Part shown: in pieces, positions 34,991 to 53,351 of the stretch
Position numbering within the stretch: position 1 is the first letter of the stretch
Layout: the number at the start of each line of letters is the position of its first letter
DNA from: Candidatus Babeliales bacterium
Lineage (GTDB): Bacteria > Babelota > Babeliae > Babelales > RVW-14
Direction of reading: 5' to 3'
Assembly: GCA_041671765.1 (NCBI GenBank)
Contig: JBAZAX010000005.1
Coordinates: 2,260-66,259, forward strand
DNA: 64,000 bases
Position numbers and translations under genes: made by a program
Notes under the pieces: generated by a model
What the model saw: only the letters and a program-made list of their open reading frames with translations
What the model was told of the DNA's origin: nothing
Databases searched by the model: none

Positions 34991-35008
34991 TGTTATTTTA
35001 ATTTTAGC

Positions 35009-36799
35009 CTAAGTTGCACTATTTAAAACGACAAATTTACTACTTTCATAATCCCATGTAAGAAATTTAGCATCATGATGAAAATATTCAGCATCTTTAA
35101 AAATAACTGAAATATCATAAATTTTATTTGACTGAAATGGAACAATTATAGAATTGTCTTCACTATGAATGTAGATGTTATGACGACCATAAGGAAAATC
35201 ATCATAATTGTGCTGGTCATCAAAAACAATGTTGCAAAAAGGCTTATCATAGCTAAACCATAATTTATCTTTATCAGTGGTAATAAATCTAAAAGAATTT
35301 GCACCTGTTCTAATTATCAAATTATCTTTAATGGGCATAAAACTGTGTATCCTAATTCTACTATCACAATAACAATCAATTGCAACCCTACTTATCCCAT
35401 ATAATTCAATAGCTTGAGGCAAACTCATCCAATGATACATTGTAAATGGTAAGCTAAAAATAAAAAACGGCGTGTCTTGCAAAGCTTTCCCTACGGACGT
35501 TTTAAGCTCCAAAATAGGATAAAAAGTGCTTTGCAAATGTTTGAAAGCACGCTGCCGTTGCATATTTAAAAAAAATAAATTATATGCAATCATAAAAGCA
35601 AGCACAACAGCACCACAATATTTAGCTAAATGGTATTTTCTTAACCATGTAAATTTGAAAAGCGCAATAAACATCAAAATAAATGAAATCGAAGCTTCAT
35701 AAAAAGTTCGGTCATTTTGGCCACCATAGCCACAAATGAATATGGGCCAGAAAAGCAGTGCTGTAAAAAAAGCTAAGAGTAAAATTAACTTTTTTTTGGT
35801 ACTGGTAAAAAAAAGTATAAATGGAATAGAAAGAGTAAAAATTTTTATAAATCGATAAAGCCACAAAAATTTATGTTGATCAAAAATGTAATAAACACTG
35901 TACAAAGGATGAAAACAACTCAATAAATAAAGATACAACACATGAATTGTATTCATCGATAAAATATTAACTGAAAAATAATTCCCTAATCCCACACTCG
36001 AAAAAACAATTGAATATGAAATTTGCCTCATGAAAAAATAGACTAAAATCGTTAATCCAAAACCTATCACTATCTTTAACTGATCCAATATTCTTTGAAA
36101 TTTATAATATTGAGACCGCTCATATAAATTCATAATAAATATAGCCATTAATGGAAAAACAATAAAAGTCTCTCTTACGCCCAATGAAAGAAAGAAAAAT
36201 AGGTAAGAGGCTAAAGGCAACATTGTTTTACTATGAATATTCCTTATTTTTTTTATTAAAAAAACAGCTGCCAAAATAGCAAAAAAAGTCGTAAAAATAT
36301 GTTGCTGACAATCCCACTTTCCAATAAAACAAAATGATGGATGAAAAGCATAAAACAATGAAAACAAAATTGCAAAAAAATTACCCGTAAAAGGAATAAT
36401 AAAATAACAAAGTATGGATGTGTTGAGCGAATGGAAAAACATTAAAAACATGAAATGCATGTACGCATTTAAACCAAATAGACTATATTCAAAAAAATAC
36501 AAAACTAAACACATAGGTCTATAATAAACAGAAAAAAATGTTTGCCGCCATATCTCAAATGGGTGAAGCAATGACCTGTATGTATCAAGCGATCCGTGAA
36601 TAAAAAAATCTAAAAAATCTTTAATTGATTTTACTTTATAACACCTAAAAAGTTGAACATAATCTTCCCCATCAAAATACCACTGCGGATTCATTAATAC
36701 AAAAACTAAAAAAACAACCCCCAATATAAATAATGAAATAATTTTTCTTGAATTTTTTTTTATAAATTCTTTATACAAAACAGGCATGAGATCTTCCAT
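35009..36799 (-). CDS. polytopic membrane protein, GT-C (PMT/ArnT-like) suspected; paralog of 19073-20845
   Basis: YYRPMCLVLYFFEYSLFGLNAYMHFMFLMFFHSLNT aligns with the same block in 19073-20845. Its ATG shares one base with the upstream gene's TAA (TAATG). An A9 tract lies at about codons 12-14. Confidence 0.65.
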   Translation of the reverse strand: MEDLMPVLYKEFIKKNSRKIISLFILGVVFLVFVLMNPQWYFDGEDYVQLFRCYKVKSIKDFLDFFIHGSLDTYRSLLHPFEIWRQTFFSVYYRPMCLVLYFFEYSLFGLNAYMHFMFLMFFHSLNTSILCYFIIPFTGNFFAILFSLFYAFHPSFCFIGKWDCQQHIFTTFFAILAAVFLIKKIRNIHSKTMLPLASYLFFFLSLGVRETFIVFPLMAIFIMNLYERSQYYKFQRILDQLKIVIGFGLTILVYFFMRQISYSIVFSSVGLGNYFSVNILSMNTIHVLYLYLLSCFHPLYSVYYIFDQHKFLWLYRFIKIFTLSIPFILFFTSTKKKLILLLAFFTALLFWPIFICGYGGQNDRTFYEASISFILMFIALFKFTWLRKYHLAKYCGAVVLAFMIAYNLFFLNMQRQRAFKHLQSTFYPILELKTSVGKALQDTPFFIFSLPFTMYHWMSLPQAIELYGISRVAIDCYCDSRIRIHSFMPIKDNLIIRTGANSFRFITTDKDKLWFSYDKPFCNIVFDDQHNYDDFPYGRHNIYIHSEDNSIIVPFQSNKIYDISVIFKDAEYFHHDAKFLTWDYESSKFVVLNSAT

Positions 36800-37560
36800 T
36801 AGGATTTATTAATAGTTTTTTGCTTATATACACGACCCGCAAATGATCCAAAACAATCAAGTCGATCAAATTTAAATTCTTTTCGGTTGGCGTAAAAAAA
36901 ATTTTTAATATCCAAGTAGCTACAGCACCACGTTGCATCAGCATCAGCACTAACACTTACTTCTGGGGGAAGCGGAACAACTTTGAGCATATAAGGTTTC
37001 TTAATAATTCGTTTTGATATACAAAAAAACGTTATTTTTAAGAACATGTAGATGCTTCTACAAACACCCCCCTCTGTAAACGGGGTTAGGTGAAGCTTTT
37101 TCCCCTTAATCTTGTCAATAATAATGTTTTTGTACATACGTGGACGATGGTAATCAGGGGCATATAAATAAAAATAACCATCGTCTTTAAGAAATTTTAA
37201 TTTGTAATCAATAAATTCGCCAATATCATCAACATGCTCGGCCACCGTATAAGAAATAACAACATCATATTTTTCAACATGAGATTCAAATTCTTTTTGT
37301 GTAAACAATGCTCCCTCAAGTCCAAGTCGCTCTTTACCCACATTCACTAATGTCTCATTAATTTCAACACCATAGGCATTTTTAAATCCAAATTGGCGCA
37401 ACACTTTAACTAGACTCCCAACTCCAGCACCAACATCCAAGATAATTGCATCTTTTGGTATATTATTTTGTTTTAAAAATAATAATGCCCACATAAAATA
37501 TACCTCGTCATGTCTAAATAATTCATTAATATATGCAGGATTATCATACCAAAGCTTCAT
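36799..37560 (-). CDS. class I SAM-dependent methyltransferase
   Basis: ILDVGAGVGSLVKVL, YDVVISYTVAEHV. ATG 37560 (MKLWYDN) is preferred; the longer track ORF would overlap the fcl 3-prime end. Confidence 0.75.
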   Translation of the reverse strand: MKLWYDNPAYINELFRHDEVYFMWALLFLKQNNIPKDAIILDVGAGVGSLVKVLRQFGFKNAYGVEINETLVNVGKERLGLEGALFTQKEFESHVEKYDVVISYTVAEHVDDIGEFIDYKLKFLKDDGYFYLYAPDYHRPRMYKNIIIDKIKGKKLHLTPFTEGGVCRSIYMFLKITFFCISKRIIKKPYMLKVVPLPPEVSVSADADATWCCSYLDIKNFFYANRKEFKFDRLDCFGSFAGRVYKQKTINKS

Positions 37561-37597
37561 ACTATTTCCTTTGCGTAACTCAAAGCTTATTATTACG

Positions 37598-38791
37598 TTA
37601 CAACACACCTTCCTTGAGACAAGTGCAGTACCACTCATAAACACTTCTAATGCCAAACTCAAGAGTGATATTTGCTTTCCACCCTAATTTTGAAATCTTG
37701 CAAACATCAAGCAGCTTTCTTGGTGTTCCATCTGAACTAGCACAATCAAATTTAATTTCTCCATTAAATCCGACAACATTTTTAATTATCTGTGCAAGCT
37801 CGGAAATTTTTAGGTCCACTCCAACGCCAATGTTAATACACTCACCCAGATCTGAAAAATCATATTTATTCATGAGAAACAGTAGCGCTAAGACTAAATC
37901 ATCCACATGTAAAAATTCACGATAGGCAGCGCCTGTTCCCCATAGATTTAGAGTCGTTGCAGTTATGCCAAACTTTGCAAGTAAAGACTGGATATCTGAA
38001 TCGCTAAAAGCTTCAATATATTTCTTCTGTAACTCGCATCCTTCGACAGGCTCCCAGCCTTCGCTTTGGGTAGCTTCGGCGGACACGGCAGGACGAGCGG
38101 CCGAACCATCCGTCGTAGACTTGGCGTAGACGGACGCGCCAGATTTCAGAAGAGGCAAGCCAAATTTTTTAAAATCAGATCTGATACTTACAAAATCTTT
38201 AATCGCAAGCAACTTGGCCAGATGAAATTTTCTGATCATAGCCGGTAAAACATGCGCCGTTTCAAGATTAAAATTATCATTTGGACCGTAAAGATTTGTA
38301 GGCATCACAGAGATAAAATTTGTTCCATACTGTTCATTAAAATATCTACAAAGTTTAAGTGCAGAAATTTTTGCGATGGCATAAGCTTCGTTAGTTGGTT
38401 CTAGTGAACCGGAAAGTAAATATTCTTCTTTTAACGGCTGAGGGGCATTTTTTGGATAGATGCAGGAAGACCCAAGATTAAGTAATTTTTCAACACCAAA
38501 TTTATGTGAGGCAGAAATAACATTTGCAGAGATCATTAAATTGTCATAAATAAAATCGGCTTTTTGTGCATTGTTTGCCCAAATTCCACCAACTTTTGCT
38601 GCCGCTAGAAAAACATATTCAGGACGATTTTCTTGAAAAAAAGATTCGACTTGCGATTGAGATCTTAAATCAAGATCTTGAATCTCTTTTGTAATAATAT
38701 TTTTATATCCATGGGTTTTCAAGGCTCTTAGAATTGAGGATCCAACCAAACCGGTATGCCCAGCTACATAAATTTTAGAATCAATATGCAT
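37598..38791 (-). CDS. fcl: GDP-L-fucose synthase carrying a GC-rich in-frame insertion
   Basis: IYVAGHTGLVGSS, GSSCIYPK, YAIAK, GTGAAYREFLHVDD. 397 aa, compared with about 320 aa for E. coli-type Fcl. Confidence 0.9.
   Translation of the reverse strand: MHIDSKIYVAGHTGLVGSSILRALKTHGYKNIITKEIQDLDLRSQSQVESFFQENRPEYVFLAAAKVGGIWANNAQKADFIYDNLMISANVISASHKFGVEKLLNLGSSCIYPKNAPQPLKEEYLLSGSLEPTNEAYAIAKISALKLCRYFNEQYGTNFISVMPTNLYGPNDNFNLETAHVLPAMIRKFHLAKLLAIKDFVSIRSDFKKFGLPLLKSGASVYAKSTTDGSAARPAVSAEATQSEGWEPVEGCELQKKYIEAFSDSDIQSLLAKFGITATTLNLWGTGAAYREFLHVDDLVLALLFLMNKYDFSDLGECINIGVGVDLKISELAQIIKNVVGFNGEIKFDCASSDGTPRKLLDVCKISKLGWKANITLEFGIRSVYEWYCTCLKEGVL
38033..38151. repeat. GC-rich mosaic repeat block inside fcl (in frame)
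   Basis: Contains CCCAGCCTTCGC, GGCGGACACGGCAGGAC and, reverse-complemented, GCCAAGTCTACGACGGATGG. These modules are shared with 18971, 12415/44775 and 43366. Encodes SGASVYAKSTTDGSAARPAVSAEATQSEGWEPVEGCE. Confidence 0.8.
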
Positions 38792-38805
38792 TGAAAAATG
38801 CCTTT

Positions 38806-39963
38806 CTAGAGATAAGCTTCTTTCATTCCCTGGTGCCAGGTTACAGTATGAGATGTGTATAAAAAGTTTTTATTTTTACAAATATCAATGCCCTGCCCAA
38901 CTGGTTGAAGGCCGGCGAATTTTAAATCGTAATCAACCATAATTTTTACAAGTTCATCGAAAGTCACTCGTGGTGACCAACATAAAATATCTTTTGCTTT
39001 AGAAATATCTGCTTGAAGGCGTTCGACTTCCGTTGGACGGAAATATCTTGGATCAACTTCGACAATTATATCTCCGGGCTTTAAAATTCCGGACCACATT
39101 GAGCTCAAATTTTTTATAATTCCAATCTCCTCAACACCTGATCCAACCCATTCAAGTTCAACTCCTGCGTAAGCAAACGATTTTTCAACAAATTCACGCA
39201 CTGGCACACTTTTACCTGTACCTATTACAAAATCACCCGGCTTATTTTGTTGCATCATCAACCACATTGCCTCAACATATTCAGGCGCAAAACCCCAATC
39301 ACGCTTGGCATTAAGATTGCCAAGATAAAGTTTGGTTTGCCTCTTGAGAAGCATATTTGCAATCGCCATTGTTATTTTTCTGGTAACAAATGTTTCTCCA
39401 CGTCTTGGGCTCTCGTGATTAAATAAAATTCCATTGCTTGCCGCAATTCTATAAGCTTCGCGATAATTAACAGTTATCCAGTAAGAATAAACTTTAGCGG
39501 CCGCATATGGACTGCGTGGATAAAAAGCTGTCTCTTCACTTTGAGGCGCCGGAGATGCTCCAAACATCTCAGACGAAGAGGCTTGATAAAATTTTGCATC
39601 GCTTTTATATCTGCGAATAGCCTCAAGAACTCTTAAAGTTCCAAGCCCTGTTACATCACCTGTAAATTCAGGCATTTGGAACGAAACTTTTACATGAGAT
39701 TGAGCACCAAGATTATAAATCTCGTCCGGCTGAACTCTACTGACAATATCATTAATCACACTGCTGTCTAAAAGATCGCCGTAGTGTAAAAAAAATCTTG
39801 TGTTTAATTCATGCGGATCAACATATATGTGGTCAATTCGCTGAGTATTAAATGTCGATGATTTACGAATCATACCATGAACTTCATAACCTTTGGAAAG
39901 AAGGAATTCTGCCAAATATGAACCGTCTTGACCTGTTATTCCGGTTATAAGCGCTTTTCTCAT
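38806..39963 (-). CDS. gmd: GDP-mannose 4,6-dehydratase
   Basis: [54 protein letters not shown]. Confidence 0.95.
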
Positions 39964-39984
39964 TTTTATCTCTCTTTTATTTTT

Positions 39985-40068
39985 GCTGTGCCCGCCATAG
40001 CCTTGGCGACGGCTGGGTCATTCTGGGCCCTGTCCTGAACTTGATTCAGGATTGATTCAGGATCTATG
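39985..40068 (-). repeat. hairpin repeat, long form (rearranged)
   Basis: Minus-strand read: CATAGATCCTGAATCAATCCTGAATCAAGTTCAGGACAGGGCCCAGAATGACCCAGCCGTCGCCAAGGCTATGGCGGGCACAGC. Lies between the ABC exporter stop and the gmd ATG. Confidence 0.8.
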
Positions 40069-40078
40069 CCTTTTATAA

Positions 40079-41872
40079 TCAAAGATTACTAGAAGCTAAA
40101 TTCTGCGTCACTTGCCCGGCAATATTATTTCTAACTAACTGAATTTGTCCATCTGAAACTTTGTAAACAATATCGCATTTCTCTATCGTCGTTAAACGAT
40201 GAGCAATAACAATCAAAGTTTTATCTTCATTAACTTTATAAATTTCATTCATTATAAGATCTTCTGTCTTACTATCAAGAGCAGAAGTTGCTTCATCAAG
40301 AACCAACATTTCAGGATCACCGTACAAGGCCCGGGCAATTGCAATTCGTTGTTTCTGCCCTCCACTTAATTTTATTCCGGCCTCCCCAACCATTGTATGT
40401 AAGCCCTCTTGGGCAAATAAAAAATCATAAATATTAGATTTTTCAAGAACATGGATCAATTTTTGCTCATCATATACACGTCCAAATACAACATTTTCTG
40501 CAACTGTACCATCAAACAAATAAATTTGCTGCGGAATATAACCAATTTTAGATCGCCAATCACGTAAATTATCATATGTTAATATTTGACCATCAATTAA
40601 AATTTGGCCATCGCATACCCGCAAAATCCCCATAATCAAATCAGCCAATGTACTTTTGCCAGAACCACTTGGGCCAACAAATGCAACCCTTTGCCCTTTG
40701 TAAATTGTAAGATTTGTTTTATCCAGAATTAATTTGGAATTTTTATTATCCAAGGATCCTGAAACAAGTTCAGGATGACAAACGGGCTCATTGTAATAAA
40801 ACGTTAAATTTTTCAGTTCTATTTTGTTTCCGAAAGAAATACTTTCATTTCCCAAAATTTCGGGTTTTGTCTTAAGATATTCGTACAATTTACCAACGGA
40901 TGCCTTATTAAAAATTATCTGATTGTAGCTAGCTAAAACTTTATTAATGGATGGTAAAAATCGATAAAGCGCAAGTGCATATACGGAAACAATTGGAATA
41001 ATAAAAGCAGGATCGTGATAAACAAAAATTACGTAAATTACCATTAAAACAAGAATTAGAAAGCCTAAAGTTTCTAAAAAAAATCTGGGTAAACTTTGTA
41101 ATATGTTATTAAATACGTTTGCTTTTAAGACTCCATTATTTGATGTCGCGAATCGATTAACAAATGATTCTTTGTTTCCATGTAACTTAATTAATTTGAA
41201 ATTCCAAAACGCCTCTGAAAATACTTTACACATATCTTCCATATTTCTCTGGTTGACTCGTCCAGCATCTGAAAGTTTTTTAGAAAAAATTTTTACAACA
41301 AAAAAAACGATCCCCACTAAAAAAATTGTCAATGAAAACGTCATTTTTAAATTAACCCAAAGAAGCATACTGTAGATACATATGAAAGTTAAAATCTCTG
41401 ACAATAAATTTAAAATCCCAAGACAAACGCTAGCAAGTGCGTTGCAATCACTAAAAAGAGCCTGCGACACATGTGCTGAATTGTTAGCAGTAAAATCGCT
41501 GTAATAAAAACTTAAAAAATCGGAATATACTCTCAACGCAGTTGCTCTACCCTTTCCCACAGCAAAACCACTAGTTGCAAAAATATGAAAAACATTTAAA
41601 ACTGCCCTTAAAATATACAAAATAGCAACGGTAAATCCCAAAAAAAGAATAAATTTACTTGGGCTGGAAAATCCAAAAAATGAATTAAAGTACTTATAAT
41701 ATCGTGTTTGTTCAATAAAATTAAAATTGGTAACGGTTGAGATAAAAAACATCATCGCACTAATGCTGATGCTTTCAAAAATGGAAACTATAAAAGATAA
41801 GATAAATAATAAAACAAAAACCTTTTTGTCTTTTTTTGAAAGCAAACTAAAAACCTGCTTTAAAAAATTCAT
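40079..41872 (-). CDS. fused TMD-NBD ABC exporter (MsbA/PglK-like) with a hairpin-repeat insertion in the NBD
   Basis: Six N-terminal TM helices. Walker A GPSGSGKST, signature LSGGQKQR, Walker B LVLDEATSALD. ATG 41872 is preferred over TTG 41902. Confidence 0.85.
   Translation of the reverse strand: MNFLKQVFSLLSKKDKKVFVLLFILSFIVSIFESISISAMMFFISTVTNFNFIEQTRYYKYFNSFFGFSSPSKFILFLGFTVAILYILRAVLNVFHIFATSGFAVGKGRATALRVYSDFLSFYYSDFTANNSAHVSQALFSDCNALASVCLGILNLLSEILTFICIYSMLLWVNLKMTFSLTIFLVGIVFFVVKIFSKKLSDAGRVNQRNMEDMCKVFSEAFWNFKLIKLHGNKESFVNRFATSNNGVLKANVFNNILQSLPRFFLETLGFLILVLMVIYVIFVYHDPAFIIPIVSVYALALYRFLPSINKVLASYNQIIFNKASVGKLYEYLKTKPEILGNESISFGNKIELKNLTFYYNEPVCHPELVSGSLDNKNSKLILDKTNLTIYKGQRVAFVGPSGSGKSTLADLIMGILRVCDGQILIDGQILTYDNLRDWRSKIGYIPQQIYLFDGTVAENVVFGRVYDEQKLIHVLEKSNIYDFLFAQEGLHTMVGEAGIKLSGGQKQRIAIARALYGDPEMLVLDEATSALDSKTEDLIMNEIYKVNEDKTLIVIAHRLTTIEKCDIVYKVSDGQIQLVRNNIAGQVTQNLASSNL
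40754..40782 (+). repeat. hairpin repeat, short form, inside the ABC exporter CDS (antisense to the gene, in frame)
   Basis: GGATCCTGAAacaagTTCAGGATGACAA. Read on the gene strand it encodes CHPELVSGS. Confidence 0.85.
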
Positions 41873-42007
41873 TATTCTCTTTTCTCTACAATAGTTTGAC
41901 AAACGTCCTTTTGAATGAAAAAATCTGTTGTGTAATCTTATTGAATGCTAACTTATTTAACTAAAATGTAAAGGAAGGAGAGTTCATTCAGAACTCTGAA
42001 TAAGATC

Positions 42008-43138
42008 ATGAACACAGAAAACAAAAAGATTCTGAATCAAGTTTCGGATGATAAAAGTAAAGAATCTAAAAAAATTTTAGTAACGGGTGGAGCAGGATTT
42101 CTTGGAAGCAATTTATGTCGCAAGCTTCTTGAACTTGGCCACCAGGTAATTGCTGTTGATAATTTGAGTACAGGAAGACTTGATAATATTCAAGATTTAA
42201 CACAAATCAAAAATTTTAGTTTTATTAAACATGACATAATTTATCCCATAAATTTTATCCAAAATCAAGCCCGCCGTCCTTCGGGCGATGGTTCGATACG
42301 CGCACTACGTGCGCACTCACCACGAGCGGGGCTATTTAATCCGCTCATCCTGAGTGTTTTGCGAAGCCATGCTGAGCAAAATGTATCGAAGGACATAGAC
42401 TGGATATTTAATTTTGCTTGTCCCGCATCCCCGCCTGCATACCAAAGTGATCCGATTCAAACAATAAAAACAAGCTTTTTGGGAATGTTGAACATGCTTG
42501 AACTTGCCAAAAAAAACAATGCACGAATTATGCAAGCATCAACAAGTGAAGTTTATGGCGATCCGGAGGAACATCCTCAAAAAGAAACTTACTGGGGACA
42601 CGTAAATCCAATTGGAATTAGATCATGTTATGATGAGGGAAAACGTAGCGCTGAGTCACTAATTTTTGATTATCACAGAGCATACAAAACTGATATAAAG
42701 GTTATTAGAATATTCAACACTTACGGGCCGGGAATGGATCCACTGGACGGTCGAGTTGTAAGTAATTTTATAATTCAGGCGTTGAATAATCAGCCAATAA
42801 CAATGTACGGTGACGGCAAACAAACACGATCATTCTGCTATGTTGATGATCTTATAAATGGGATCATAAAAATGATGCAGACAGACTATGGAATTACGGG
42901 ACCTGTTAATTTGGGAAATCCAAAAGAGTTTACATTACTTGAGCTTGCACAAAAAGTTTTAAATTTAACCGGCAGTAAATCTAAAATAGTATTTGAACAA
43001 CTACCTCAGGACGACCCCAAACGCCGTCGCCCGGACATAACTTTGGCAAAGCAATTATTAGACTGGAACCCGGAAATCACACTTGATGTTGGCCTTGAGA
43101 AAACAATTAAATATTTTGCAGGAATAAATGTTAAATAA
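42008..43138 (+). CDS. UDP-glucuronate decarboxylase (UDP-xylose synthase) with a GC-rich in-frame insertion
   Basis: [43 protein letters not shown]. Confidence 0.9.
42267..42392. repeat. GC-rich block inside the UDP-xylose synthase CDS (in frame)
   Basis: caagcccgccgtccttcgggcgatgg...GCGCACtacGTGCGC...gcTCATCCTGAGtgttttGCGAAGccatgctgagcaaaatgtaTCGAAGGAc. Shares the TCATCCTGA and TCGAAGGA motifs with the other blocks. Encodes [41 protein letters not shown]. Confidence 0.7.
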
Positions 43139-43200
43139 CACGAGCTCAAGAATTAAATATTGCTTTATGAAAGCTACTATAACGCATGGAAGTTACTTTA

Positions 43201-43250
43201 CCGTCGCCCCGGCGAAGGCCGGGGTCCAGCCTCAACTCCAATCCCTGCAT
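43201..43250 (+). repeat. GC-rich repeat module C1
   Basis: CCGTCGCCCCGGCgaagGCCGGGGTCCAGCCTCAACTCC. The same flanks as 18923-18955, with the loop inverted and one stem pair changed. Confidence 0.8.
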
Positions 43251-43341
43251 CTATTTTTTGAGAAATTCATCACCGCAAATAACAATCAAACAAAGCCAAA
43301 TCAGATACTCAAAAACTTTTTTATATATCCACAGACTAAAA

Positions 43342-43475
43342 CCTGGATCCCGGCCTTCCGACTTCGCCAAGGCTACGACGGACAAGTCGCCGGGACGACC
43401 CAGGCTACGCATAAAGCTATCAGCCGTCGCCCATGTGGCTATGGCCGACAGGCGCCGGACACGGCCAAGGAGAAT
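43342..43475 (+). repeat. GC-rich repeat modules C2 + core B
   Basis: CCTGGATCCCGGCCTTCCGACTTCGCCAAGGCTACGACGGACAAGTCGCCGGGACGACCCAGGCTACGC...CAGCCGTCGCCcatgtGGCTATGGCCGACAGGCGCCGGACACGGCC. Confidence 0.8.
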
Positions 43476-43534
43476 GCGGTTGGCATTATTACAGTAGGTT
43501 ACGATAACAAATTAAGCAACCTGGAGCGCTTCTC

Positions 43535-44743
43535 ATGAAAGTAGTCGTATCTGCAGGTGGTCGATTTCATGCAATCAATCTTGCTCAGCAGCTAAATAAG
43601 AAACGCTGCCTACAAAAATTATATTCTTTTAGTTTCACCAAATCTGACCAGCCTAAAATAGACAAAAATCATGGCACAGGTATAAGTTTGGTTAAAACAA
43701 TTAACTCGTGTAAATTTTTGGATATGGCATTCCAAAAACTACGACTTGCCCATTTTATTAACCCATCAATTTTTAACTCTTTTAAAGATAATTTATTTGA
43801 TTCTCTGGTTGCGCGTGAAATTAAAAAGCTTGAACACATTGATATTTTTACAGGTTGGGCAAATTATTCTTTAAAATGTCTTGCTCAGGCAAAAAAGGTT
43901 GGCGCTAAAACTATAATCGAGTCCGGGTCATGCCACATCAAAGAACAGCTGATATTACTTTCGCATGAATATGAAAAGTGGGGGGTAAAGTTTAGGCCTA
44001 TTTATCAGCCGGTTATAGATAAGATGGAGCAAGAGTATAACCAAGCAGATTTTATCATGACACTATCGGACTTTTCTTACCAAAGCTTTATCAAACACGG
44101 AATAAATCCCAAAAAAATTTTAAAGACCCCATGTGGAATCGATGTCGATTTTTTTCAAACAGAAGAAACGTTGCCACGTCAAGGCACGAAATTCAGAGTA
44201 ATTTTTGTCGGCATGATAAGTCTGCGCAAGGGCATACCATACTTAATTGAAGCCTGGAATAAGTTAGATCTCCCCAAAAATTCAACAGAATTAGTTTTGG
44301 TTGGAAATATTCAAAAAGATATGTATCAAGTTTTAAAAAAATTAGAGATAAAAAAGAATGTTAATTTTTTTGGATCTTGCAGCAGAGATGATTTAAAAAA
44401 ACTTTATCAAGAATCAGATGTCTTTGTTTTGCCATCTGTTGAAGATGGGTTTGGAATGGTGATAGGCGAAGCAATGGCATGCGAATTGCCTGTAATTTGT
44501 TCAAAAAATACCGGCGCAAATGATATTATTCAAGACGGTAAACATGGATTTTTGGTGCAAGCACAAAACACTGAAGCTCTGGCTGAGAAAATTTTATGGT
44601 GCTACCAAAATCCGGAACCAAGCAAAGAGATGGGAAATTTGGGTAAAAATAAAATTCTTGATTTTAGCTGGGATAATTACGGAAATAATGTTTTTGAGAT
44701 TTATCAAAATATTATGCGGGGCAGTACAAATTATAGATCCTGA
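43535..44743 (+). CDS. family 4 glycosyltransferase
   Basis: VFVLPSVEDGFGMVIGEAMACELPVICS (EX7E region). The stop codon lies inside a repeat arm. Confidence 0.85.
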   Translation: MKVVVSAGGRFHAINLAQQLNKKRCLQKLYSFSFTKSDQPKIDKNHGTGISLVKTINSCKFLDMAFQKLRLAHFINPSIFNSFKDNLFDSLVAREIKKLEHIDIFTGWANYSLKCLAQAKKVGAKTIIESGSCHIKEQLILLSHEYEKWGVKFRPIYQPVIDKMEQEYNQADFIMTLSDFSYQSFIKHGINPKKILKTPCGIDVDFFQTEETLPRQGTKFRVIFVGMISLRKGIPYLIEAWNKLDLPKNSTELVLVGNIQKDMYQVLKKLEIKKNVNFFGSCSRDDLKKLYQESDVFVLPSVEDGFGMVIGEAMACELPVICSKNTGANDIIQDGKHGFLVQAQNTEALAEKILWCYQNPEPSKEMGNLGKNKILDFSWDNYGNNVFEIYQNIMRGSTNYRS

Positions 44744-44792
44744 ATCAAGTTCCAGCCGTCGCTGAAGCTATGGCTGACACGCAGGATGACAA
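44732..44792 (+). repeat. hairpin repeat, long form with GC-rich core
   Basis: tatAGATCCTGAATCAAGTTCCAGCCGTCGCtgaaGCTATGGCTGACACGCAGGATGACAA. The left arm holds the TGA of the GT4 gene; the right arm holds the ATG at 44786. Confidence 0.85.
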
Positions 44793-45850
44793 AAGGGCAA
44801 TTTGTGAACGTAAAAAAAATCTTACTTGTCGGAAACTTTAATAACAATCCTAAAATTTACACATACGCCTCATCATTTTATAAAGCCATGCATTGCAATG
44901 CGATGCAAAACTTGGGATTAACTGTAGAAAAATTTAATTATAAAAATTCAAAATTTAACACCCCAATACTTAAAAATATTATTGGCGTACGATTAATAAA
45001 CTATTCTTTATTAAGAACAGTAAAAACTTTTAAGCCTGATCTGATTTTTATGCTTAAGGCCGACAACATTACAGCTAAAACTCTAAATAATATAAAAACT
45101 AATAATAAAAATATAAAAATAATTAATTTTTATCCTGATAACCCATTTACATTCTGGAACGGAAATTCCAACGCAAATATACTACTCTCTCTGCCTGTTT
45201 ATGACTTATTCTTAATATGGTCACATCAGCTAATACCTATACTTTATTCGTCCGGAGCAAAAAATGTACGCTACTTCCCATTTGGCTTTGACGAAAGCAT
45301 ATTTTCACAAGAAATACAGCTTTCAGAAAACGATCATACCAAATATCAATCAGACATATGTTTTGTGGGAAGTTGGGATGCAGAACGTGAAGCCTGGTTA
45401 ACAAAGCTTATGCACAAAATACCCGCTCTAAATCTGGCCATTTGGGGAAACAGGTGGAATGAAAATTTACCACAAAACTCGATATTAAAAACATATTTGA
45501 AAGGTTGTGCAATTTATGGTATCGATATGATGAAAGCTTTTCGACTTTCAAAGATAGTCCTAAATTTCATCAGAAAGCAGAACTTGGATGCTCACAATAT
45601 GCGTACAATCGAAGTTGCAGCATGCAAGTCTTTTTTGCTGACCGAAAGAACAAAGGACCAAGCCGAACTACTTTTTAAGGAAGGCGTAAGTATAGAATGT
45701 TTTAAAGACATTGATGATCTGACAAGCAAAATAAATTTTTACTTATCAAATCATAATGCCCGAGCCACAATTACTCAAAATGGGTATGAAGAAGCTCAAA
45801 AATATTCGATTGAAAATTTGCTTTTAGAAACTTTTAAAAAATTTATTTGA
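44786..45850 (+). CDS. CgeB-family glycosyltransferase-like protein
   Basis: 354 aa. The C-terminal NMRTIEVAACKSFLLTE block is typical of the CgeB/DUF3880 family. The start is either the ATG inside the repeat arm (44786) or GTG 44804, which follows AAGGG. Confidence 0.65.
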   Translation: MTKGQFVNVKKILLVGNFNNNPKIYTYASSFYKAMHCNAMQNLGLTVEKFNYKNSKFNTPILKNIIGVRLINYSLLRTVKTFKPDLIFMLKADNITAKTLNNIKTNNKNIKIINFYPDNPFTFWNGNSNANILLSLPVYDLFLIWSHQLIPILYSSGAKNVRYFPFGFDESIFSQEIQLSENDHTKYQSDICFVGSWDAEREAWLTKLMHKIPALNLAIWGNRWNENLPQNSILKTYLKGCAIYGIDMMKAFRLSKIVLNFIRKQNLDAHNMRTIEVAACKSFLLTERTKDQAELLFKEGVSIECFKDIDDLTSKINFYLSNHNARATITQNGYEEAQKYSIENLLLETFKKFI

Positions 45851-45869
45851 AATTAAGTTTTACAAATTT

Positions 45870-46532
45870 ATGAAAAAAGATACATCGGATAATAAACTAT
45901 CGGACGTAAAATTATCGTATTTAAAAAATTTTATACAAGGCCAATCAATTTTAGATGTCGGCTCCGGACAGTGTTTTTATAGCCAGTGGCTACATCAACG
46001 AGATTCTAATTTTAATATTACTGCAGTTGATTGTGTTGATTTAGAGCAAACGCCCTCTCATATTGGGTATCTAAAACTAAATTTAGAATCAACCTTTCCT
46101 TTTCAAGATCAATCATTTGATACAATAATAGCATTCGACGTAATTGAACACATTGAAAACGAAACTCAATTAATAAATGAATTAAACAGAGTATGTAAAA
46201 ATGACGGCATAATAATAGGCAGTGTTCCACACGACAATGACAAATTTTTACCTGATTATAACCTAACGTTTTATCATCGTTCTGATTTGACACATAAAAG
46301 ATATTATTTGCCGGAGACACTTTATTCAAAATTATGCGCTGCCGGATTTGATATAAAAACAGTTGAACTGCACGGAGGTATCAATCCTCAAGTTATTGCA
46401 GAATTTTTCCCAAAACATACACGCTTTTTAATAAAAAAAATTATCGGAATGTTCAGAAGAATGGGACTCATAAATATAGAAATTTTAAAATCTGATCTGT
46501 TTTTTGTTGCAAAAAAGGTGATAAATGATTAG
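45870..46532 (+). CDS. class I SAM-dependent methyltransferase
   Basis: ILDVGSGQCFYSQWL, FDTIIAFDVIEHI. Confidence 0.8.
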   Translation: MKKDTSDNKLSDVKLSYLKNFIQGQSILDVGSGQCFYSQWLHQRDSNFNITAVDCVDLEQTPSHIGYLKLNLESTFPFQDQSFDTIIAFDVIEHIENETQLINELNRVCKNDGIIIGSVPHDNDKFLPDYNLTFYHRSDLTHKRYYLPETLYSKLCAAGFDIKTVELHGGINPQVIAEFFPKHTRFLIKKIIGMFRRMGLINIEILKSDLFFVAKKVIND

Positions 46533-47841
46533 TCAACGAGAATTTCAAGGAAATGGCCTTGGAAAAGACAATTTAATCAAAAAACCAAAAATCGCAATTC
46601 TTTCTTTAAAAAATAGCTATGGATATGGTGGGGTTCTGTCCTCACTGAAAGTAGCACACGATTTTTGTCAAAAGTACTTCGATCCCACCGTGTTTTTTCT
46701 TGGATTCGAGCCTACTATTTCAACAAGTTTGAAAAATCTAAAATTCACCTCCAATGTACAAACTTTAAATTATTTTGGAATGAAGTGCATTGAAATCGGC
46801 TCAAGATGGGCATTTTGGGAACCTGGTCATTACAAATTTAATTTGAAATTCTGGGAAAAACAACTCGAAGAATATGATTACTTTTTGGCTGTCAGCGGAA
46901 CATGCATCTGCGCACATCCGCTTGCACTTTTAAATAAAAAATTTGGAATGCTAATCTCCACTCCCTATAATGATGACAGGGCAAGACGTGTTGATGAGCT
47001 CCACGGAATAAGATATGTAATAGATAGAGTAGCCAATAAAAAAATGCAACTCATCGAGAAGCATATTCTTGAAAAATCTAATTTTATTTGGGCATTAAGT
47101 AATTATTCAAAAAAAGAATTTGAAAAAATCATACAAAAACCATCTTCTAACATTATGTGTTGTGGCCATCCAATTGACTGTAATCCATTACCAAAATTAA
47201 AAACAAAAGATGAGAATATTATTATAGCGGTTGGCAGATTTAGCGACCCAAGAAAAAATATTGATATGCTTCTGCGAGCATTTAGCAAAATATGCAGATC
47301 TATGCCAAATGCAAAATTGTATGTAGTCGGCAAAACACCTGAACACAACCGAATCAAAGAATTCATCAAATTGCCTTTTTTCCAAAATGTAATATTCACA
47401 GGACAAGTGAGTGCAAGCGATCTTGAATCTCTTTACCAAAGAGCCTCACTTATGCTTATTACATCATATCAGGAAGGATTTGGCATTGTTGGGCTGGAAG
47501 CACTTTTACATGGAATTCCAATTGTAGCAACAAATTGCGGCGGACCGGCAGATTATGTAATTAATGATTTTACCGGGTATCTTGTAGAAATAAATGACGA
47601 TGAAGAAATGGTAAAACAAGCCCTATCAATTCTTTCCAATAAAGAAAAACTTTGCCTAATGTCCTTAAATTCACAAAAATTTGCTTCAGAAAATTACTCT
47701 GTTGATAGAATTGAAAATTTTTTCAAGCTTGGTTTTACCAAAATTTACCCCGAACTAAAAAAAATATTTAATTTAATCGATAAAGACAAAAATTTTATCG
47801 TAACATCAAGCAATACTGAATTTAAAAATCACTCCTTATGA
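46525..47841 (+). CDS. family 4 glycosyltransferase
   Basis: LMLITSYQEGFGIVGLEALLHGIPIVATNCGG. 8-nt overlap with the upstream gene. Confidence 0.85.
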   Translation: MISQREFQGNGLGKDNLIKKPKIAILSLKNSYGYGGVLSSLKVAHDFCQKYFDPTVFFLGFEPTISTSLKNLKFTSNVQTLNYFGMKCIEIGSRWAFWEPGHYKFNLKFWEKQLEEYDYFLAVSGTCICAHPLALLNKKFGMLISTPYNDDRARRVDELHGIRYVIDRVANKKMQLIEKHILEKSNFIWALSNYSKKEFEKIIQKPSSNIMCCGHPIDCNPLPKLKTKDENIIIAVGRFSDPRKNIDMLLRAFSKICRSMPNAKLYVVGKTPEHNRIKEFIKLPFFQNVIFTGQVSASDLESLYQRASLMLITSYQEGFGIVGLEALLHGIPIVATNCGGPADYVINDFTGYLVEINDDEEMVKQALSILSNKEKLCLMSLNSQKFASENYSVDRIENFFKLGFTKIYPELKKIFNLIDKDKNFIVTSSNTEFKNHSL

Positions 47842-47987
47842 ATAATTTCAGTCTGAAATAAACCTCGTGCAAATAAATTGTGCGCCCGAGGTTTTCTCAC
47901 GAATTTTACAAAAATTTGTAACGTGTGGATTTTTACAATATCTTTAGAAATCAAATAATACGCTTATTTAGTTAAGAAAGGGTTTCT

Positions 47988-49631
47988 GTGAAAAATAAAA
48001 TATATCTGTTTGCTACGACAATACTGTCAATGTGCTTAATAAATTTAAACGCCGAAATTGGCGCAGAACAGATGCAAACTTATAAGCAGGAGAAATTATC
48101 CTGGGCCCAAATAAGCGAGCAAAGCAGAAGCGCTGTTGTGCAAATTTTTTCATACACAAAGGAACCTCACCATTTTGTAAGGTACAAAACCCCTGAAGAC
48201 GGTGGAGGATGCGGAACAGGCTTCATAATTAATCATGAAGGCGAGATTTTGACTAATTTTCACGTTGTTGATAAAGCTGTAAAAATATTTATTCAACATC
48301 CGGATTTATCAAAAGAAAGATTTGAAGTAGAATACGTGGGTGGCTGCCCAGAACAGGATATTGCCTTATTAAGATTAAAAAATGAGGACTGCTCAAAAAT
48401 AAAAAAACTGTTAAAAGTTGAAACCATTCCATATCTGGAAATCGGTAATTCTGATGAACTTGTAGAAGCTCAAAAGATTATGGCACTTGGATATCCACAA
48501 GGAAAAGAGACTGTTAAAAGTTCATGTGGTGGAGTTTCAGGCCGAGAAAGCACACATATCGGAGAATGCATTCAAACAACAACTCCTGTAAATCCCGGTA
48601 ATTCGGGCGGACCATTTTTGAATAAATTTGGCCAAGTTATCGGAATATGCGTTTTGAAACATGTTGGAACGGAAATTGAAGGAATTGCCTATCTGATTCC
48701 AATAAACAATGCAAAAAGACTGCTTCCTCAACTAAGAAAATCAAAAATAGTACGCAGGCCTTACTGGGGCATTTCATATCAACCAATTAATCAAGATTTG
48801 ATCGATTATTTAAAAATATCAGAACAAGACGGAGTACTAATAACAAAAATATATAAAAATTCATTATGCGAACAAGCAGGTCTGAAAAAAAATGACATTA
48901 TTTGCGCAATAAACAATGAAGCTGTCGACAGGTATGGCTACATTCACAAGCGTATATCTTTAATGGATTTTTTGAACACGCTTGAACTTGAAAGTACCGT
49001 AATTTTTGACATTTTGAGAGATAATAAACACATAAACATTGAATTTATCATAGAACAAGGCAACTCGTTCGAAATAAAAGAATATCATGAGGGATATGAA
49101 GAACTTCCCCCTTATGAGGTAATTGGCGGGTTGGTTATAACAGAACTGAATTTAAACCAAATTGAAATAGCCAAAGCCATACAGGCAAATTTATTGAAAT
49201 CCCGATATGCTGACTCAAGCCTTGCTGATATTTCAAGTTTCACAAAATATGAAAAACCACAAAATAGATTTGACTCAAAAGTTATAATTTCCTACATTAT
49301 TCCGGGATCAGAAATAGAAAATAGTCGATGTGTCAAAGAAATATATCAGGGAATAGGAATTCCCGCAGATCCAATAATAAAAAATATTAATGGAATAAAA
49401 GTCGCTAATCTTGATGATGCAAGAAACGCTATCTTGCAAACACAAAAATTTATGACAATAGAAACTACAGGCGGAAGTTTTATATCAATATCGCTTGAAA
49501 AACTCGTAACAGAAGATACAATTTTAAGCGAGCAGGAAGGGTTTGAGACGTCAAATTTAGTTGAAGCGCTTCTCGAAAAAACTGTTGTCAGCGATCAAAG
49601 CGAAAATAATTACATTCCTGAGACAAATTAA
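47988..49631 (+). CDS. secreted trypsin-like serine protease (HtrA/DegP-like) with PDZ-like region
   Basis: Signal peptide. Catalytic His (LTNFHVV), Asp (EQDIALLRL) and Ser (GNSGGP). GTG start. Confidence 0.8.
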   Translation: MKNKIYLFATTILSMCLINLNAEIGAEQMQTYKQEKLSWAQISEQSRSAVVQIFSYTKEPHHFVRYKTPEDGGGCGTGFIINHEGEILTNFHVVDKAVKIFIQHPDLSKERFEVEYVGGCPEQDIALLRLKNEDCSKIKKLLKVETIPYLEIGNSDELVEAQKIMALGYPQGKETVKSSCGGVSGRESTHIGECIQTTTPVNPGNSGGPFLNKFGQVIGICVLKHVGTEIEGIAYLIPINNAKRLLPQLRKSKIVRRPYWGISYQPINQDLIDYLKISEQDGVLITKIYKNSLCEQAGLKKNDIICAINNEAVDRYGYIHKRISLMDFLNTLELESTVIFDILRDNKHINIEFIIEQGNSFEIKEYHEGYEELPPYEVIGGLVITELNLNQIEIAKAIQANLLKSRYADSSLADISSFTKYEKPQNRFDSKVIISYIIPGSEIENSRCVKEIYQGIGIPADPIIKNINGIKVANLDDARNAILQTQKFMTIETTGGSFISISLEKLVTEDTILSEQEGFETSNLVEALLEKTVVSDQSENNYIPETN

Positions 49632-49650
49632 AAACTATGGAACAACAAAC

Positions 49651-50262
49651 ATGTCAAAAGAAATTGAAATCAAAATTAAATTGGAGATCAACCAGATAGA
49701 ACAATTAAGAGAATGGCTTATCCAAAATGCAAAATTCATGGATAAGCTGCAAATGATTGATTATTACCTGGATGATCCTAAAAAAAGTCTCTATAAAATT
49801 AGTCCGGCTGGATTCAAAGACCCCCTTGAATTTTGGCGTGTCAGACAAATTGATAATGTTTATTTCTTATGTAATAAAAAAAGAATTATTGATGAAAACG
49901 GTAGAACCGTAAGTGTTGAAGAAAATGAAGCTGTAACCCCAGAGGGCGAAGCGATAATACAAATTTTCAAAAAACGCGGGTTAACCGACCAGGTAATTAT
50001 TTATAAGACAAGAGAAATTTTTCAATATGAAGATTTTGAAATTGTTTTTGATAATGTTAAAAATTTAGGTGAATTTGTTGAAATTGAATTAAAATCGGAT
50101 GAGCAAGATCCTGTCCAAGGCAAAAAACTAATTTATGATTTGCTCAAAAAAATTGGGATTACGGAATTCACTCAGTTTGATCGCGGATATCTTTGTATGA
50201 TGTTGAATCCAAAATCTAGCTTCGGCGAAAAAGTAGAATTAAACAAAACAGGCCAGGATTAA
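49651..50262 (+). CDS. CYTH-domain protein (CyaB-type class IV adenylyl cyclase / triphosphatase family)
   Basis: N-terminal EIEIKIKL (ExExK) and C-terminal GEFVEIELK. ATG 49651 avoids an overlap with the protease gene. Confidence 0.75.
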   Translation: MSKEIEIKIKLEINQIEQLREWLIQNAKFMDKLQMIDYYLDDPKKSLYKISPAGFKDPLEFWRVRQIDNVYFLCNKKRIIDENGRTVSVEENEAVTPEGEAIIQIFKKRGLTDQVIIYKTREIFQYEDFEIVFDNVKNLGEFVEIELKSDEQDPVQGKKLIYDLLKKIGITEFTQFDRGYLCMMLNPKSSFGEKVELNKTGQD

Positions 50263-50275
50263 CTGGCCTGTTTTA
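50248..50275. terminator. bidirectional intrinsic terminator between the convergent CYTH and trxA genes
   Basis: ACAGGCCAG-gattaa-CTGGCCTGT followed by TTTT. The reverse strand is followed by TTTTGTTT. The CYTH stop codon lies in the loop. Confidence 0.75.
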
Positions 50276-50326
50276 TAAATTGTTTGGTAAAAATTACTCG
50301 AGTTAATCAAGCAAAAAATTTGTGTT

Positions 50327-50650
50327 TTATTTTTCGAAATAACTTTGAATTTTACTTTTCAAAGTATCTTTACTCATAAACCCGGTTTCTCTTCCAACCA
50401 CAACACCATCTTTAATAAATAGAAACGTTGGAATGGATGAAACGTTGTGTTTTACAGCAATCTCACGTTCTTCATCAATATTGACTTTGGCAAATTTGCA
50501 CTTGGTAAATAGCTCTGCTGCCACTTCATCCAAAACAGGCGCCATCATCTTACAAGGTCCACACCAAGTTGCATAAAAATCAACTACGACTGGCTGTACC
50601 GATTTCATAATTTCTTGTTCAAAATTTTGAGTTGTTGCTACCATAACCAT
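50327..50650 (-). CDS. trxA: thioredoxin
   Basis: 107 aa with the WCGPCK active site. Confidence 0.9.
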   Translation of the reverse strand: MVMVATTQNFEQEIMKSVQPVVVDFYATWCGPCKMMAPVLDEVAAELFTKCKFAKVNIDEEREIAVKHNVSSIPTFLFIKDGVVVGRETGFMSKDTLKSKIQSYFEK

Positions 50651-50738
50651 ATCAAAACTCCTCTTGATAAAAATGAGGACTAATCAAATAAACAAAATCT
50701 AGAGCTAGTATAGTAAATATGAGATAAAATTGCACCAG

Positions 50739-52907: not shown

Positions 52908-53165
52908 CGCCCTGCCCTCTCCCTCAAAGACTGTCTCTCTATTATGTAAATTATTATTTGTCATCTTTCAATTACGATGTTATTAGATTTGATTACAAAT
53001 AGTCAATGAAACTATTTAATTTGGGATTTAGGCAAATGAAAAGCTCAAAATCTCTCTTTTTCTTAAATAAATCCTGTGATAACATGCTATGTAATTAGGG
53101 CCAGTTCAATAACTAGTTGTATTGTTGCTTAGATTTTTGTTCTAAATTCCCTTTGTTAAGCAGAT

Positions 53166-53193
53166 TTGTCATGCTCAACTCGTTTCAAATAGG
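53166..53193 (-). repeat. degenerate hairpin repeat copy (inverted relative to 53199-53234)
   Basis: The plus strand reads TTGTCATGCTCAACTCGTTTCAAATAGG. Compare TTGTCATCCTGAACTCGTTTCAGGATCC, the reverse complement of the 11082-11109 copy. Confidence 0.55.
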
Positions 53194-53198
53194 AACAA

Positions 53199-53234
53199 CT
53201 AATCCATGGATCCTGAAATAAATTCAGGATGACA
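53199..53234 (+). repeat. hairpin repeat, short form
   Basis: ctaatccatGGATCCTGAAataaaTTCAGGATGACA. Confidence 0.85.
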
Positions 53235-53351
53235 CAATTTTCACACAAGACTTTCAACTACGCGCTTGAAGCAATATGACGGACAGGTCTGCATACACGA
53301 CAAAAACACGATCACGGAATATAGTTATAAAAGAGAGATATATTAAAGGAG

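Follow-up and report, generated by a model that had tools for sequence, protein, structure and literature searches.

We analysed a 64-kb stretch of DNA from a Candidatus Babeliales bacterium (contig JBAZAX010000005.1), referred to as the window. It carries a gene for UDP-glucuronate decarboxylase, or UDP-xylose synthase (UXS), located in a conserved polysaccharide cluster, and this gene contains a GC-rich palindromic block. PolA of the window genome was 66% identical to that of a TM6 genome and 84% identical to that of a relative assigned to the metagenome-assembled genome (MAG) MFD01231.bin.2.11 (CAVXAT010000008). The named relatives of PolA, and likewise of UXS, were Babeliales or Dependentiae. 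By these protein comparisons the host genome is that of a Dependentiae (TM6/Babeliales-like) bacterium. The two features under study are:

42008 to 43138, + strand: UXS gene, 376 amino acids (aa), open reading frame (ORF) intact
42249 to 42392, + strand: inserted copy of a B-type palindromic element, recognised by covariance model R1, BLAST siblings and the empty site in ortholog L005

“B-type” is a family name coined here. R1 is our covariance model of this family; 11 copies from other genomes went into it, and the window was left out.

The UXS gene and its insert

A preliminary description of the locus had proposed a strongly GC-rich insertion of 126 nt, or 42 residues, after the HD strand of UXS. 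The insertion itself was borne out. Human UXS1 (2b69) aligned with residues 17-81 and 129-371 of the window protein (E = 5e-106) and left residues 82-128 unaligned, with only two human residues opposite them; the peptide quoted for the insert had been read correctly. Distant UXS orthologs were, like human UXS1, without the insert. The GC content of the block (42267-42392) was 56%, compared to 34% for the window. The proposed size did not hold. Compared to the closest empty ortholog, L005 (CCA ATT GAT TTA GAT ATA GAT TGG), the net gain was 138 nt, or 46 codons, and because of this gain at least 12 nt 5′ of 42267 (ATCCAAAATCAA) are also non-host. Positions 42269-42393 are the certain core of the insert, its left edge lies somewhere within 42249-42267, and the host reading resumes after the block at GAC ATA GAC TGG. 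The insert is in frame, its length is a multiple of three, and it has no stop codon in the gene frame.

We observed the same insert in a second, independent European Nucleotide Archive assembly (L002, protein P0001), which differed by 2 nt over the whole UXS gene; the insert is therefore not an assembly artefact. Among the UXS orthologs, the 99%-identical one had the same insert. At one of the two differing positions, 42381 (A>G, window vs. L002), in the second hairpin described below, an A-U pair becomes G-U and Asn becomes Ser in the insert.

The insertion site lies between the HD strand (beta-strand 3, FIKHD) and beta-strand 4 (IDWIFNFA), in a short crossover loop of the Rossmann domain. 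In extended short-chain dehydrogenases/reductases (SDRs), the crossover from strand 3 to strand 4 is a surface connection of the Rossmann domain, distant from the catalytic Tyr and Lys. Window UXS has the GxxGxxG motif and the catalytic S/T-Y-K residues of an extended SDR, with T26-G33, S178-E181 and Y208-K212 kept, and it retains all columns invariant over 71 UXS orthologs (GGAGFLG, D51, STSE, YDEGK). An AlphaFold2 model of the protein had a mean predicted local distance difference test (pLDDT) score of 82, with the core mostly above 90, and a TM score of 0.91 against 2b69 (normalised to the target). Residues 84-126 scored below 50 and included one short helix. The model suggests that the core fold is intact with the low-confidence insert in place, and that the insert is probably a stretch of ~46 disordered residues in a surface loop of UXS.

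Such a loop could also mark the decay of the gene, if the insertion inactivated UXS, or is inactivating it, and left a young pseudogene that is open by chance. The 46-residue low-confidence loop starts a few residues past the HD motif, at the cofactor-binding end of strand 3, and element turnover in this genome is heavy, which would both fit inactivation. However, all 376 codons are open, every invariant residue is kept, and the ratio of nonsynonymous to synonymous divergence (dN/dS) between the window gene and four orthologs was 0.05-0.13; the gene is under purifying selection. In the lineage of ortholog L001 (UXS dS 0.65), too, the site is occupied by an insert while the gene is intact, and the window gene keeps its place in the polysaccharide cluster. 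We consider it improbable that UXS has been lost in this way.

The next UXS orthologs (~76-90%) had no insert, or had short, unrelated AT-rich additions. In the same β3-β4 loop, P0036 had a 48-aa tandem repeat of the APIASA type, P0006 had 11 additional aa, and P0003/5/7 had 9. These varied additions are in keeping with a tolerant site. P0003 also had a GC-module insert near the N-terminus of UXS.

The B-type family and its fold

R1 matched window positions 42265-42398 (+) end to end (model positions 1-132 of 132; 138.4 bits; E = 3.4e-30). In other genomes we found ~20 full sibling copies and further partial matches, up to 91% identical to the block. Four of these siblings aligned as follows:

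L123: 142 nt aligned (window 42252-42393), 88% identity, E = 5e-46
L127: 125 nt aligned, 91% identity, E = 7e-45
L125: 125 nt aligned, 90% identity, E = 1e-42
L010: 98 nt aligned, 91% identity, E = 4e-33 to 9e-35

Judged from the model match and these alignments, the UXS block is a genuine copy of a repeated, highly structured element.

To locate siblings, one genome per species was scanned for the motif pair GGGCGATGGTTCGA...CTCACCACGAGCG, which is common to the UXS inserts of the window and L001. This gave at least 113 loci. Among the matches listed, most were Chloroflexota with a 4-nt spacer, and a set of low-GC MAGs showed the 19-nt spacer of the window, which corresponds to a hairpin. A metagenome scan for the hairpin-bearing form returned 15 more loci, nearly all with 33-42% GC. 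B-type siblings came from a Dependentiae MAG close to the window genome, from further low-GC MAGs and from metagenome contigs, and the loci that they occupy are unrelated; further carriers bear the unverified labels Pseudomonadota, Fibrobacteraceae and Sideroxydans. Because MFD01231.bin.2.11 carries two B-type copies and ~20 related copies, the family is repeated in the genome of a close relative.

Sibling copies of the block were thus found in other genomes and not in the 64-kb window, where BLAST (word size 7) gave only chance 9-13-mers and motif scans for CTCACCACGAGCG, GGCGATGGTTCGA and GTCGAAGGA gave no further copies or chance levels. The short motifs by which the preliminary description had linked the UXS block to other repeat blocks were at chance level when taken alone (GTCGAAGGA with one mismatch occurred 4 times, with 6 expected). 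It had named, as evidence against a mobile sequence, a block without other genomic copies that is shared by distant orthologs; we observed the reverse, with copies elsewhere and more distant UXS orthologs without the insert.

These copies also decide against a native, lineage-specific extension of the UXS loop that arose in place and is unrelated to mobile DNA. Loop variation in the clade (P0036, P0006 and P0003/5/7, above) would be in keeping with such an extension. It is refuted by the presence of the same 125-142 nt at 88-91% identity at unrelated, mostly intergenic loci elsewhere, and the GC content of the block is 22 points above that of the host. We assign this origin next to no probability.

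The UXS copy was the sole internal in-gene B-type copy found. The other copies were mostly intergenic, often between convergent genes, and their orientation to the neighbouring genes was mixed. A 5′-leader or riboswitch-like role was dropped because this orientation is inconsistent. At L063 7235-7403, a 222-aa ORF enters a B-type element and ends inside it, which amounts to a C-terminal extension. A word-indexed protein search with the 50-aa insert peptide gave no candidates. An exhaustive HMMER search with the insert peptide (1.84 billion representatives) gave 5 matches, of which three were short spurious ORFs over intergenic copies and two were false positives in long repetitive proteins. 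The B-type block had no match in a plasmid collection. Rfam searches of the whole window at the gathering score, and of 42150-42500 at E up to 10, returned only noise, and no tRNA or tmRNA was found in the window.

B-type copies share a cruciform-like four-way junction made of a closing stem, two hairpins and a central arm. In the window copy, the parts are:

42249 to 42266, + strand: AATTTTATCCAAAATCAA, possibly a 5′ terminal inverted repeat that has diverged; ATA stands before it, in place of the ATT duplication of siblings
42271 to 42291, + strand: 5′ hairpin, helix 1 (GCCCGCCGTCC-TTC-GGGCGATGG region); 8 pairs, 3 of them compensatory, 91% of cells paired
42292 to 42299, + strand: 5′ strand of the closing stem, TTCGATAC, pairing with GTATCGAA at 42383-42390
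42300 to 42314, + strand: hairpin 1, GCGCAC-TAC-GTGCGC; both-side changes in 3 of 4 pairs
42315 to 42355, + strand: central arm, ACTC...GAGT around GAGCGGG-loop-TCCGCTC, including the near-invariant ACTCACCACGAGCGG
42356 to 42382, + strand: hairpin 2, TTTTGC-GAAGCCATGCTGA-GCAAAA; three compensatory pairs
42383 to 42390, + strand: 3′ strand of the closing stem, GTATCGAA, then GG (consensus fold)

Across the 40 consensus pairs, 93.7% of cells were paired, compared to 27-47% with partners slid. Compensatory changes on both sides occurred in ten pairs, and the observed covariation score was reached by none of 500 shuffles. The closing stem (8 pairs, 98% of cells paired) had six invariant pairs and none changed on both sides, and central-arm helices 5 and 6 were 94-100% paired. 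Hairpin 1 is the palindrome that the preliminary description had recognised within the block; its sibling variants were GCGTAC/GTACGC, GCCAGC/GCTGGC, GATTGC/GCAATC and GCGCGCC/GGCGCGC. Those of hairpin 2 were TTTTGT/ACAAAA, ATTTGC/GCAAAT, GCGCGC/GCGCGC and GCACGC/GCGTGC. The unpaired motifs GATGG, ACTCACCACGAGCGG and TATCGAAGG were invariant among copies, and the 13-mer CTCACCACGAGCG of the central arm was also present in the shorter insert of the L001 UXS ortholog. The block region itself folded at −56.7 kcal/mol (z = −3.76), and none of 200 shuffles was as good.

Read in antisense (window 42286-42269, −), the 5′ hairpin and the TTGATTTTGG that follows it scored as intrinsic-terminator-like, and siblings had the same 5′ hairpin followed by a T-rich stretch. 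In several B-type copies (L063, L026, L124 and L129) a nested ~36-nt module (CYGTGCCCGGCGTAGCCACGAAGGGCGAAGCCTGGG) lay between GTCCTG and AGTG.

The full-length B-type copies L128 (179 nt) and L026 (221 nt) had outer inverted repeats AGAYYTCTTT...AAAGAGATCT with ATT on both sides. Siblings ran ~34 nt beyond the closing stem (TGYGRATT...AAAGAGATCT) and then reached ATT, and this segment was absent in the UXS copy. Compared to the complete termini of L128 and L026, the UXS copy is truncated. At its 5′ side, AATTTTATCCAAAATCAA stands at the same distance from GCCCGCC as sibling AGACTTTTTCATAAATTCT, which is no more than suggestive of a diverged 5′ terminal repeat at 42249-42266.

A fold kept by covariation across genomes raises the alternative that the element was exapted as a structured nucleic-acid signal, in mRNA or single-stranded DNA, with its coding effect secondary. 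Such a signal might, for example, stabilise the mRNA, pause translation so that the protein can fold co-translationally, terminate antisense transcription or bind a protein. Besides the covariation, the invariant unpaired motifs, the z score of −3.76, the terminator-like antisense hairpin with its T-run, the frequent position of intergenic copies between convergent genes and the retained pair at 42381 (A-U to G-U) would agree with a signal. However, orientation to neighbours is mixed, no Rfam family matches, and transposition itself is a reason for palindromic mobile elements to retain hairpins. Nothing links a function to the UXS site, and relatives do well without the insert. A signal role, which would be compatible with the element being mobile DNA, seems unlikely, although it is the least unlikely of the alternatives concerning this insert.

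The compact, strongly structured RNA with paired ends (42292-42299 with 42383-42390) could also suggest that the insert acts as an intron-like or otherwise processed intervening sequence and is lost ahead of translation, giving a mature enzyme with the ordinary short loop. We judge this very unlikely. No intron or ribozyme family in Rfam matched at E up to 10, ~140 nt is far below the size of known self-splicing introns, and the sequence of the ortholog would not be regained by excising either 42292-42390 or the entire block. The fixed strand and frame of the stop-free in-gene relatives described below are what selection on a translated product predicts. An intein was rejected: 46 aa do not suffice for one, and Cys/Ser...His-Asn boundaries are missing.

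A-type relatives and element turnover

The window contains a related insert, of a layout we term A-type, in a second gene:

38018 to 38155, − strand: A-type element, in frame in an fcl-like epimerase gene (37598-38791, −), matched at 84-94% by elements of L039, L049 and L075

A match to the terminal-inverted-repeat-like AGACTTCTTCTGAAAC begins at 38018. A-type elements follow the layout ...CTGGCGCGTCACC-NNN-GGGTGATGGTTCGACAAGCTCACCACGAGCGCGCC-loop-GGCGCTCGTCCTGAGCCTGTCGAAGGATGCGAG... and are without the two side hairpins of the B-type. Among the fcl orthologs, L001 (430 aa) carried a ~190-nt version and L006 (352 aa) none. The preliminary description had suggested that the UXS block represents a second subfamily, less similar than the other copies, of one mobile GC-rich sequence, and this was supported. 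R1 also detected A-type copies, including the fcl insert of L001 (E = 1e-10) and, weakly, that of the window (E = 0.09). The composites L039 and L049, in the genome of a relative, joined an fcl-type (A-type) 5′ part to an exact UXS-type (B-type) 3′ half, matching 42316-42393 at 91-92% and 38017-38155 at 84-92% by BLAST. By these matches the relationship between the UXS block and the fcl insert is real, and is visible only via copies in other genomes. On the same comparisons, the B-type is homologous to a larger modular superfamily that includes the fcl insert and several intergenic GC islands of the window.

In-gene A-type copies measured 123, 195, 123 and 159 nt (L001 19389-19511 and 8588-8782; L006 3012-3134; L085 2586-2744), that is 123+36n, and always added whole codons; three of these four were flanked by intact ATT on both sides. 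In low-GC MAGs the in-gene A-type copies used one strand and one frame (...PGASPxGDGSTSSPRARL...EPVEGCE...), the GDGSTSSPRA frame, which was open in 13 of 13. The UXS copy uses the same strand and frame. Full-length relatives had the terminal inverted repeat (TIR) AGAYYTCTTYNSAAAC and a 3-bp target site duplication (TSD), ATT. Termini of the form ATT-AGAYC...GTCY-ATT occurred in four A-type or B-type copies. The ~36-nt module CYGTGCCCGGCGTAGCCACGAAGGGCGAAGCCTGGG was nested in A-type copies as well. The plasmid collection gave one match to the A-type core, unannotated, in a Comamonas megaplasmid.

Window 34971-53482 was syntenic with L001 (GCA_043808975.1) at 85-92% DNA identity over 18 kb. All seven indel sites in this interval differed by GC-rich or palindromic repeat-like sequence:

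fcl gene: window filled, ~90 nt; L001 filled, ~190 nt
39980-40070: window filled, 90-nt insert with the 7-bp duplication CTTTTAT; L001 empty
ABC-transporter gene (40079-41902, −): window with a 50-nt mini-palindrome at 40740-40790; L001 with a 195-nt A-type element
UXS gene: window with a net gain of 138 nt; L001 with ~72 nt
43118-43533: window filled, 415-nt composite between UXS and a GT4 gene; L001 empty
44723-44813: window filled, 90-nt insert at the end of the GT4 gene, C-terminus changed; L001 empty
51916/7: window empty; L001 with a 123-nt A-type element

At 51916/7 the contrast between an empty and a filled site is clean; here L001 has GGATCTCTTCTGAAAC...GTTCAGAAGAAGTCC between ATT and GTT. 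The three in-gene sites common to the window and L001 (fcl, ABC transporter and UXS) were filled in both, with different contents. In the ABC-transporter gene, the window mini-palindrome GGATCCTGAAACAAGTTCAGGATGACAA is in frame and encodes VCHPELVSGSLDN, and the L001 element at the same spot is flanked by ATT. Mobility of the family is suggested by such presence/absence differences among relatives, and not by the UXS copy itself.

The mini-palindromes (ATCCTGAAAYNAGTTCAGGAT) form a family with at least 6 copies in the window (11071, 13253, 40743, 42016, 53197 and 54305), and also occur at 44733-44793 and 40030-40065. At 44733-44793, a GC-rich module is nested within the copy and divides it. 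The copy at 42016 is diverged (64% identical) and underlies N-terminal residues of the UXS gene.

We also observed that a 27-mer, GATGGTTCGACAAGCTCACCACGAGCG (or with CAGG in place of CAAG), occurred exactly in at least 100 loci, usually in a hairpin with CCGCTCACCCTGAGCCTGTCGAAGG. Among the matches listed, most of these loci (L007-L119) were in Chloroflexota/Dehalococcoidia MAGs; other carriers are labelled Methylomirabilis, Gallionella, Roseateles, Paucibacter, Syntrophobacter and Terrimicrobium. For a miniature inverted-repeat transposable element (MITE), conservation of this kind across phyla is unusual.

A broader and more tentative reading, which we hold to be possible and rather doubtful, is that the elements belong to a very widespread family, possibly spanning many phyla, of frame-preserving, structured “coding palindromes” moved between phyla by machinery acting at the single-strand level. 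In this reading, the core arms GGTTCGACAAGCTCACCACGAGCG and CGCTCGTCCTGAGCCTGTCGAAGG appear near letter-identical in Dependentiae, Pseudomonadota, Chloroflexota and other phyla. No gene for a REP-associated tyrosine transposase (RAYT) was seen, and no search was aimed at one.

Origin of the insert and known palindromic elements

The UXS site of L001 reads CCA ATT / AAACAGGCGAGTCGCCCAAAGGGCGATGGTTCGACAAGCTCACCACGAGCGCACCTGTCCAAACTGCCC / ATA GAT TTT AAA ATC GAC TGG, a much-deleted element with the host codons complete, in a gene (P0002, 86-89% identical to the window UXS) that is intact around its shorter, related insert. The window site reads CCC ATA / AATTTT... Either insert could have entered at the ATT of the Pro-Ile codons, and both have the same orientation. 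The history of the site could be either one old insertion remodelled by deletion or conversion, or two independent hits at one target.

Taken together, these data make it probable that the UXS block is a copy of a small, non-autonomous, GC-rich, MITE-like palindromic element that behaves like the Rickettsia palindromic elements (RPEs) and is translated, tolerated and near-neutral. The element would have transposed into the ATT of the Pro-Ile codons. A full-length copy plus duplication (182 nt) would shift the frame, so that a loss of ~44 nt gives the observed 138 nt. The lost nucleotides may have comprised the final ~34 nt of the element at its 3′ side, the duplication on the right and the two host codons GAT TTA, which would leave a net in-frame gain and an immobile copy. 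The insert would then be present in both the mRNA and the protein, where it would form a flexible loop of ~46 residues, for the most part disordered, at the surface. The enzyme would tolerate this loop, and the insert would persist because it is neutral or nearly so, not as an enzyme requirement.

Several observations weigh against this account. The UXS copy ends at ...GTATCGAAGG, without the 3′ terminal repeat and the right-hand ATT duplication. At the other end, AATTTTATCCAAAATCAA agreed with both L063 and L123 in 11 of 19 positions, and with the consensus in 8 of 14 (chance p ~0.06). With the 3′ repeat and duplication missing and the 5′ repeat weak, a clean insertion footprint is not demonstrable. 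The L001 copy at apparently the same ATT is a different subtype, with no hairpin 1 and with CAAG in place of the TAC-hairpin-A. The frame used in UXS was open in only 3 of 18 B-type copies, most intergenic copies had stops, and the full-length copies (179 and 221 nt) were not multiples of three; these lengths and stop codons suggest that the B-type is not adapted to coding sequence and that the UXS case needed a lucky truncation. With so few open copies, and with matches of the insert peptide limited to three short ORFs, B-type copies that lie in frame inside a gene are rare. There was no second B-type copy in the 64-kb window or in 34 kb from the two nearest relatives, so activity in this very genome is unproven. 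Pairs of TIRs 40-4000 nt apart in ~350 kb of low-GC DNA enclosed only 123-195 nt, and an autonomous partner was not found among them. Finally, a structure so strongly conserved, with covariation, suggests a constraint that plain junk DNA would not have.

By analogy, the closest known counterpart of the UXS insert appears to be the RPEs, reportedly described in Ogata et al. 2000. As far as one published account goes, RPEs are ~150-bp repeats found in frame in many genes, each with a conserved peptide and compatible with the host protein fold (PMC10969869). On that account, RPEs and the elements described here are both palindromic repeats of ~100-150 nt in a low-GC obligate intracellular bacterium, located in frame in unrelated housekeeping genes. 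Both would also share a family peptide in a fixed strand and frame, presence/absence between close relatives and compatibility with the protein fold. Like an RPE, the UXS copy is a palindromic repeat in frame within a gene, with the ORF unbroken (net 138 nt, 376-aa ORF). A peptide in a fixed strand and frame was seen for the A-type (13 of 13), whereas the B-type has a single internal in-gene copy. Membership of the RPEs themselves fails on the host, which belongs to the Dependentiae and not to Rickettsia or the Alphaproteobacteria. Moreover, the elements here are GC-rich in an AT-rich genome, and their sequence family is apparently unrelated to the RPEs, a comparison made with RPEs by description as given in that account. 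In contrast to RPEs, the elements described here show terminal inverted repeats, a 3-bp ATT duplication, nested 36-nt modules, a four-way junction and a core present in other phyla.

The elements also have features of MITEs: they are small, have no transposase, occur in multiple dispersed copies and show presence/absence polymorphism. The TIR and the ATT TSD are present in full-length relatives and are not demonstrable for the truncated UXS copy. Repetitive extragenic palindromic (REP) sequences are 20-40 nt long, have a GTAG head and do not lie in frame in genes. REPs and bacterial interspersed mosaic elements (BIMEs), which are mobilised by RAYT transposases (IS200/IS605-like Y1), resemble the elements here in being abundant, GC-rich, imperfect palindromes that are mostly intergenic and often between convergent genes, with hairpins kept by covariation and nested or composite arrangements; unlike them, the elements here have TIRs and target duplications. 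Coxiella burnetii QMITE1 and QMITE2 make in-frame fusions, and QMITE2, which has short REP-like versions, has been found outside its genus (PMC5896051). QMITEs, the enterobacterial repetitive intergenic consensus (ERIC) and BOX share with these elements a small size, lack of autonomy, terminal inverted repeats, short direct repeats, stable hairpin transcripts and occasional in-frame extension or interruption of ORFs. In contrast, QMITEs mostly overlap gene ends, compared by description only, whereas the element here is internal to a conserved enzyme domain. In the library searched, we found no paper joining Dependentiae with palindromic elements or MITEs, and none with these DNA or peptide motifs.

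With these elements, the question of how essential genes survive the entry of palindromic repeats can be addressed in a second, independent system. Loop length among the UXS orthologs is graded (empty, +9, +11, +21 and +46 residues), and this series tests loop tolerance in a well-understood SDR. In the annotation of low-GC MAGs, the elements make proteins look longer than they otherwise would and give rise to spurious small ORFs and spurious protein clusters. Since the core motif is near-identical in several phyla, it poses a tractable question of horizontal spread or shared recognition machinery. If the elements do form a cross-phylum family of coding palindromes, the A-type, with its 123+36n nt, its 3-bp duplication and its single open frame, would be organised so as to keep reading frames, and the multi-hairpin junction would be the substrate of mobilisation. 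The elements would then be adapted to translation and would be a recurrent source of new disordered loops in essential enzymes.

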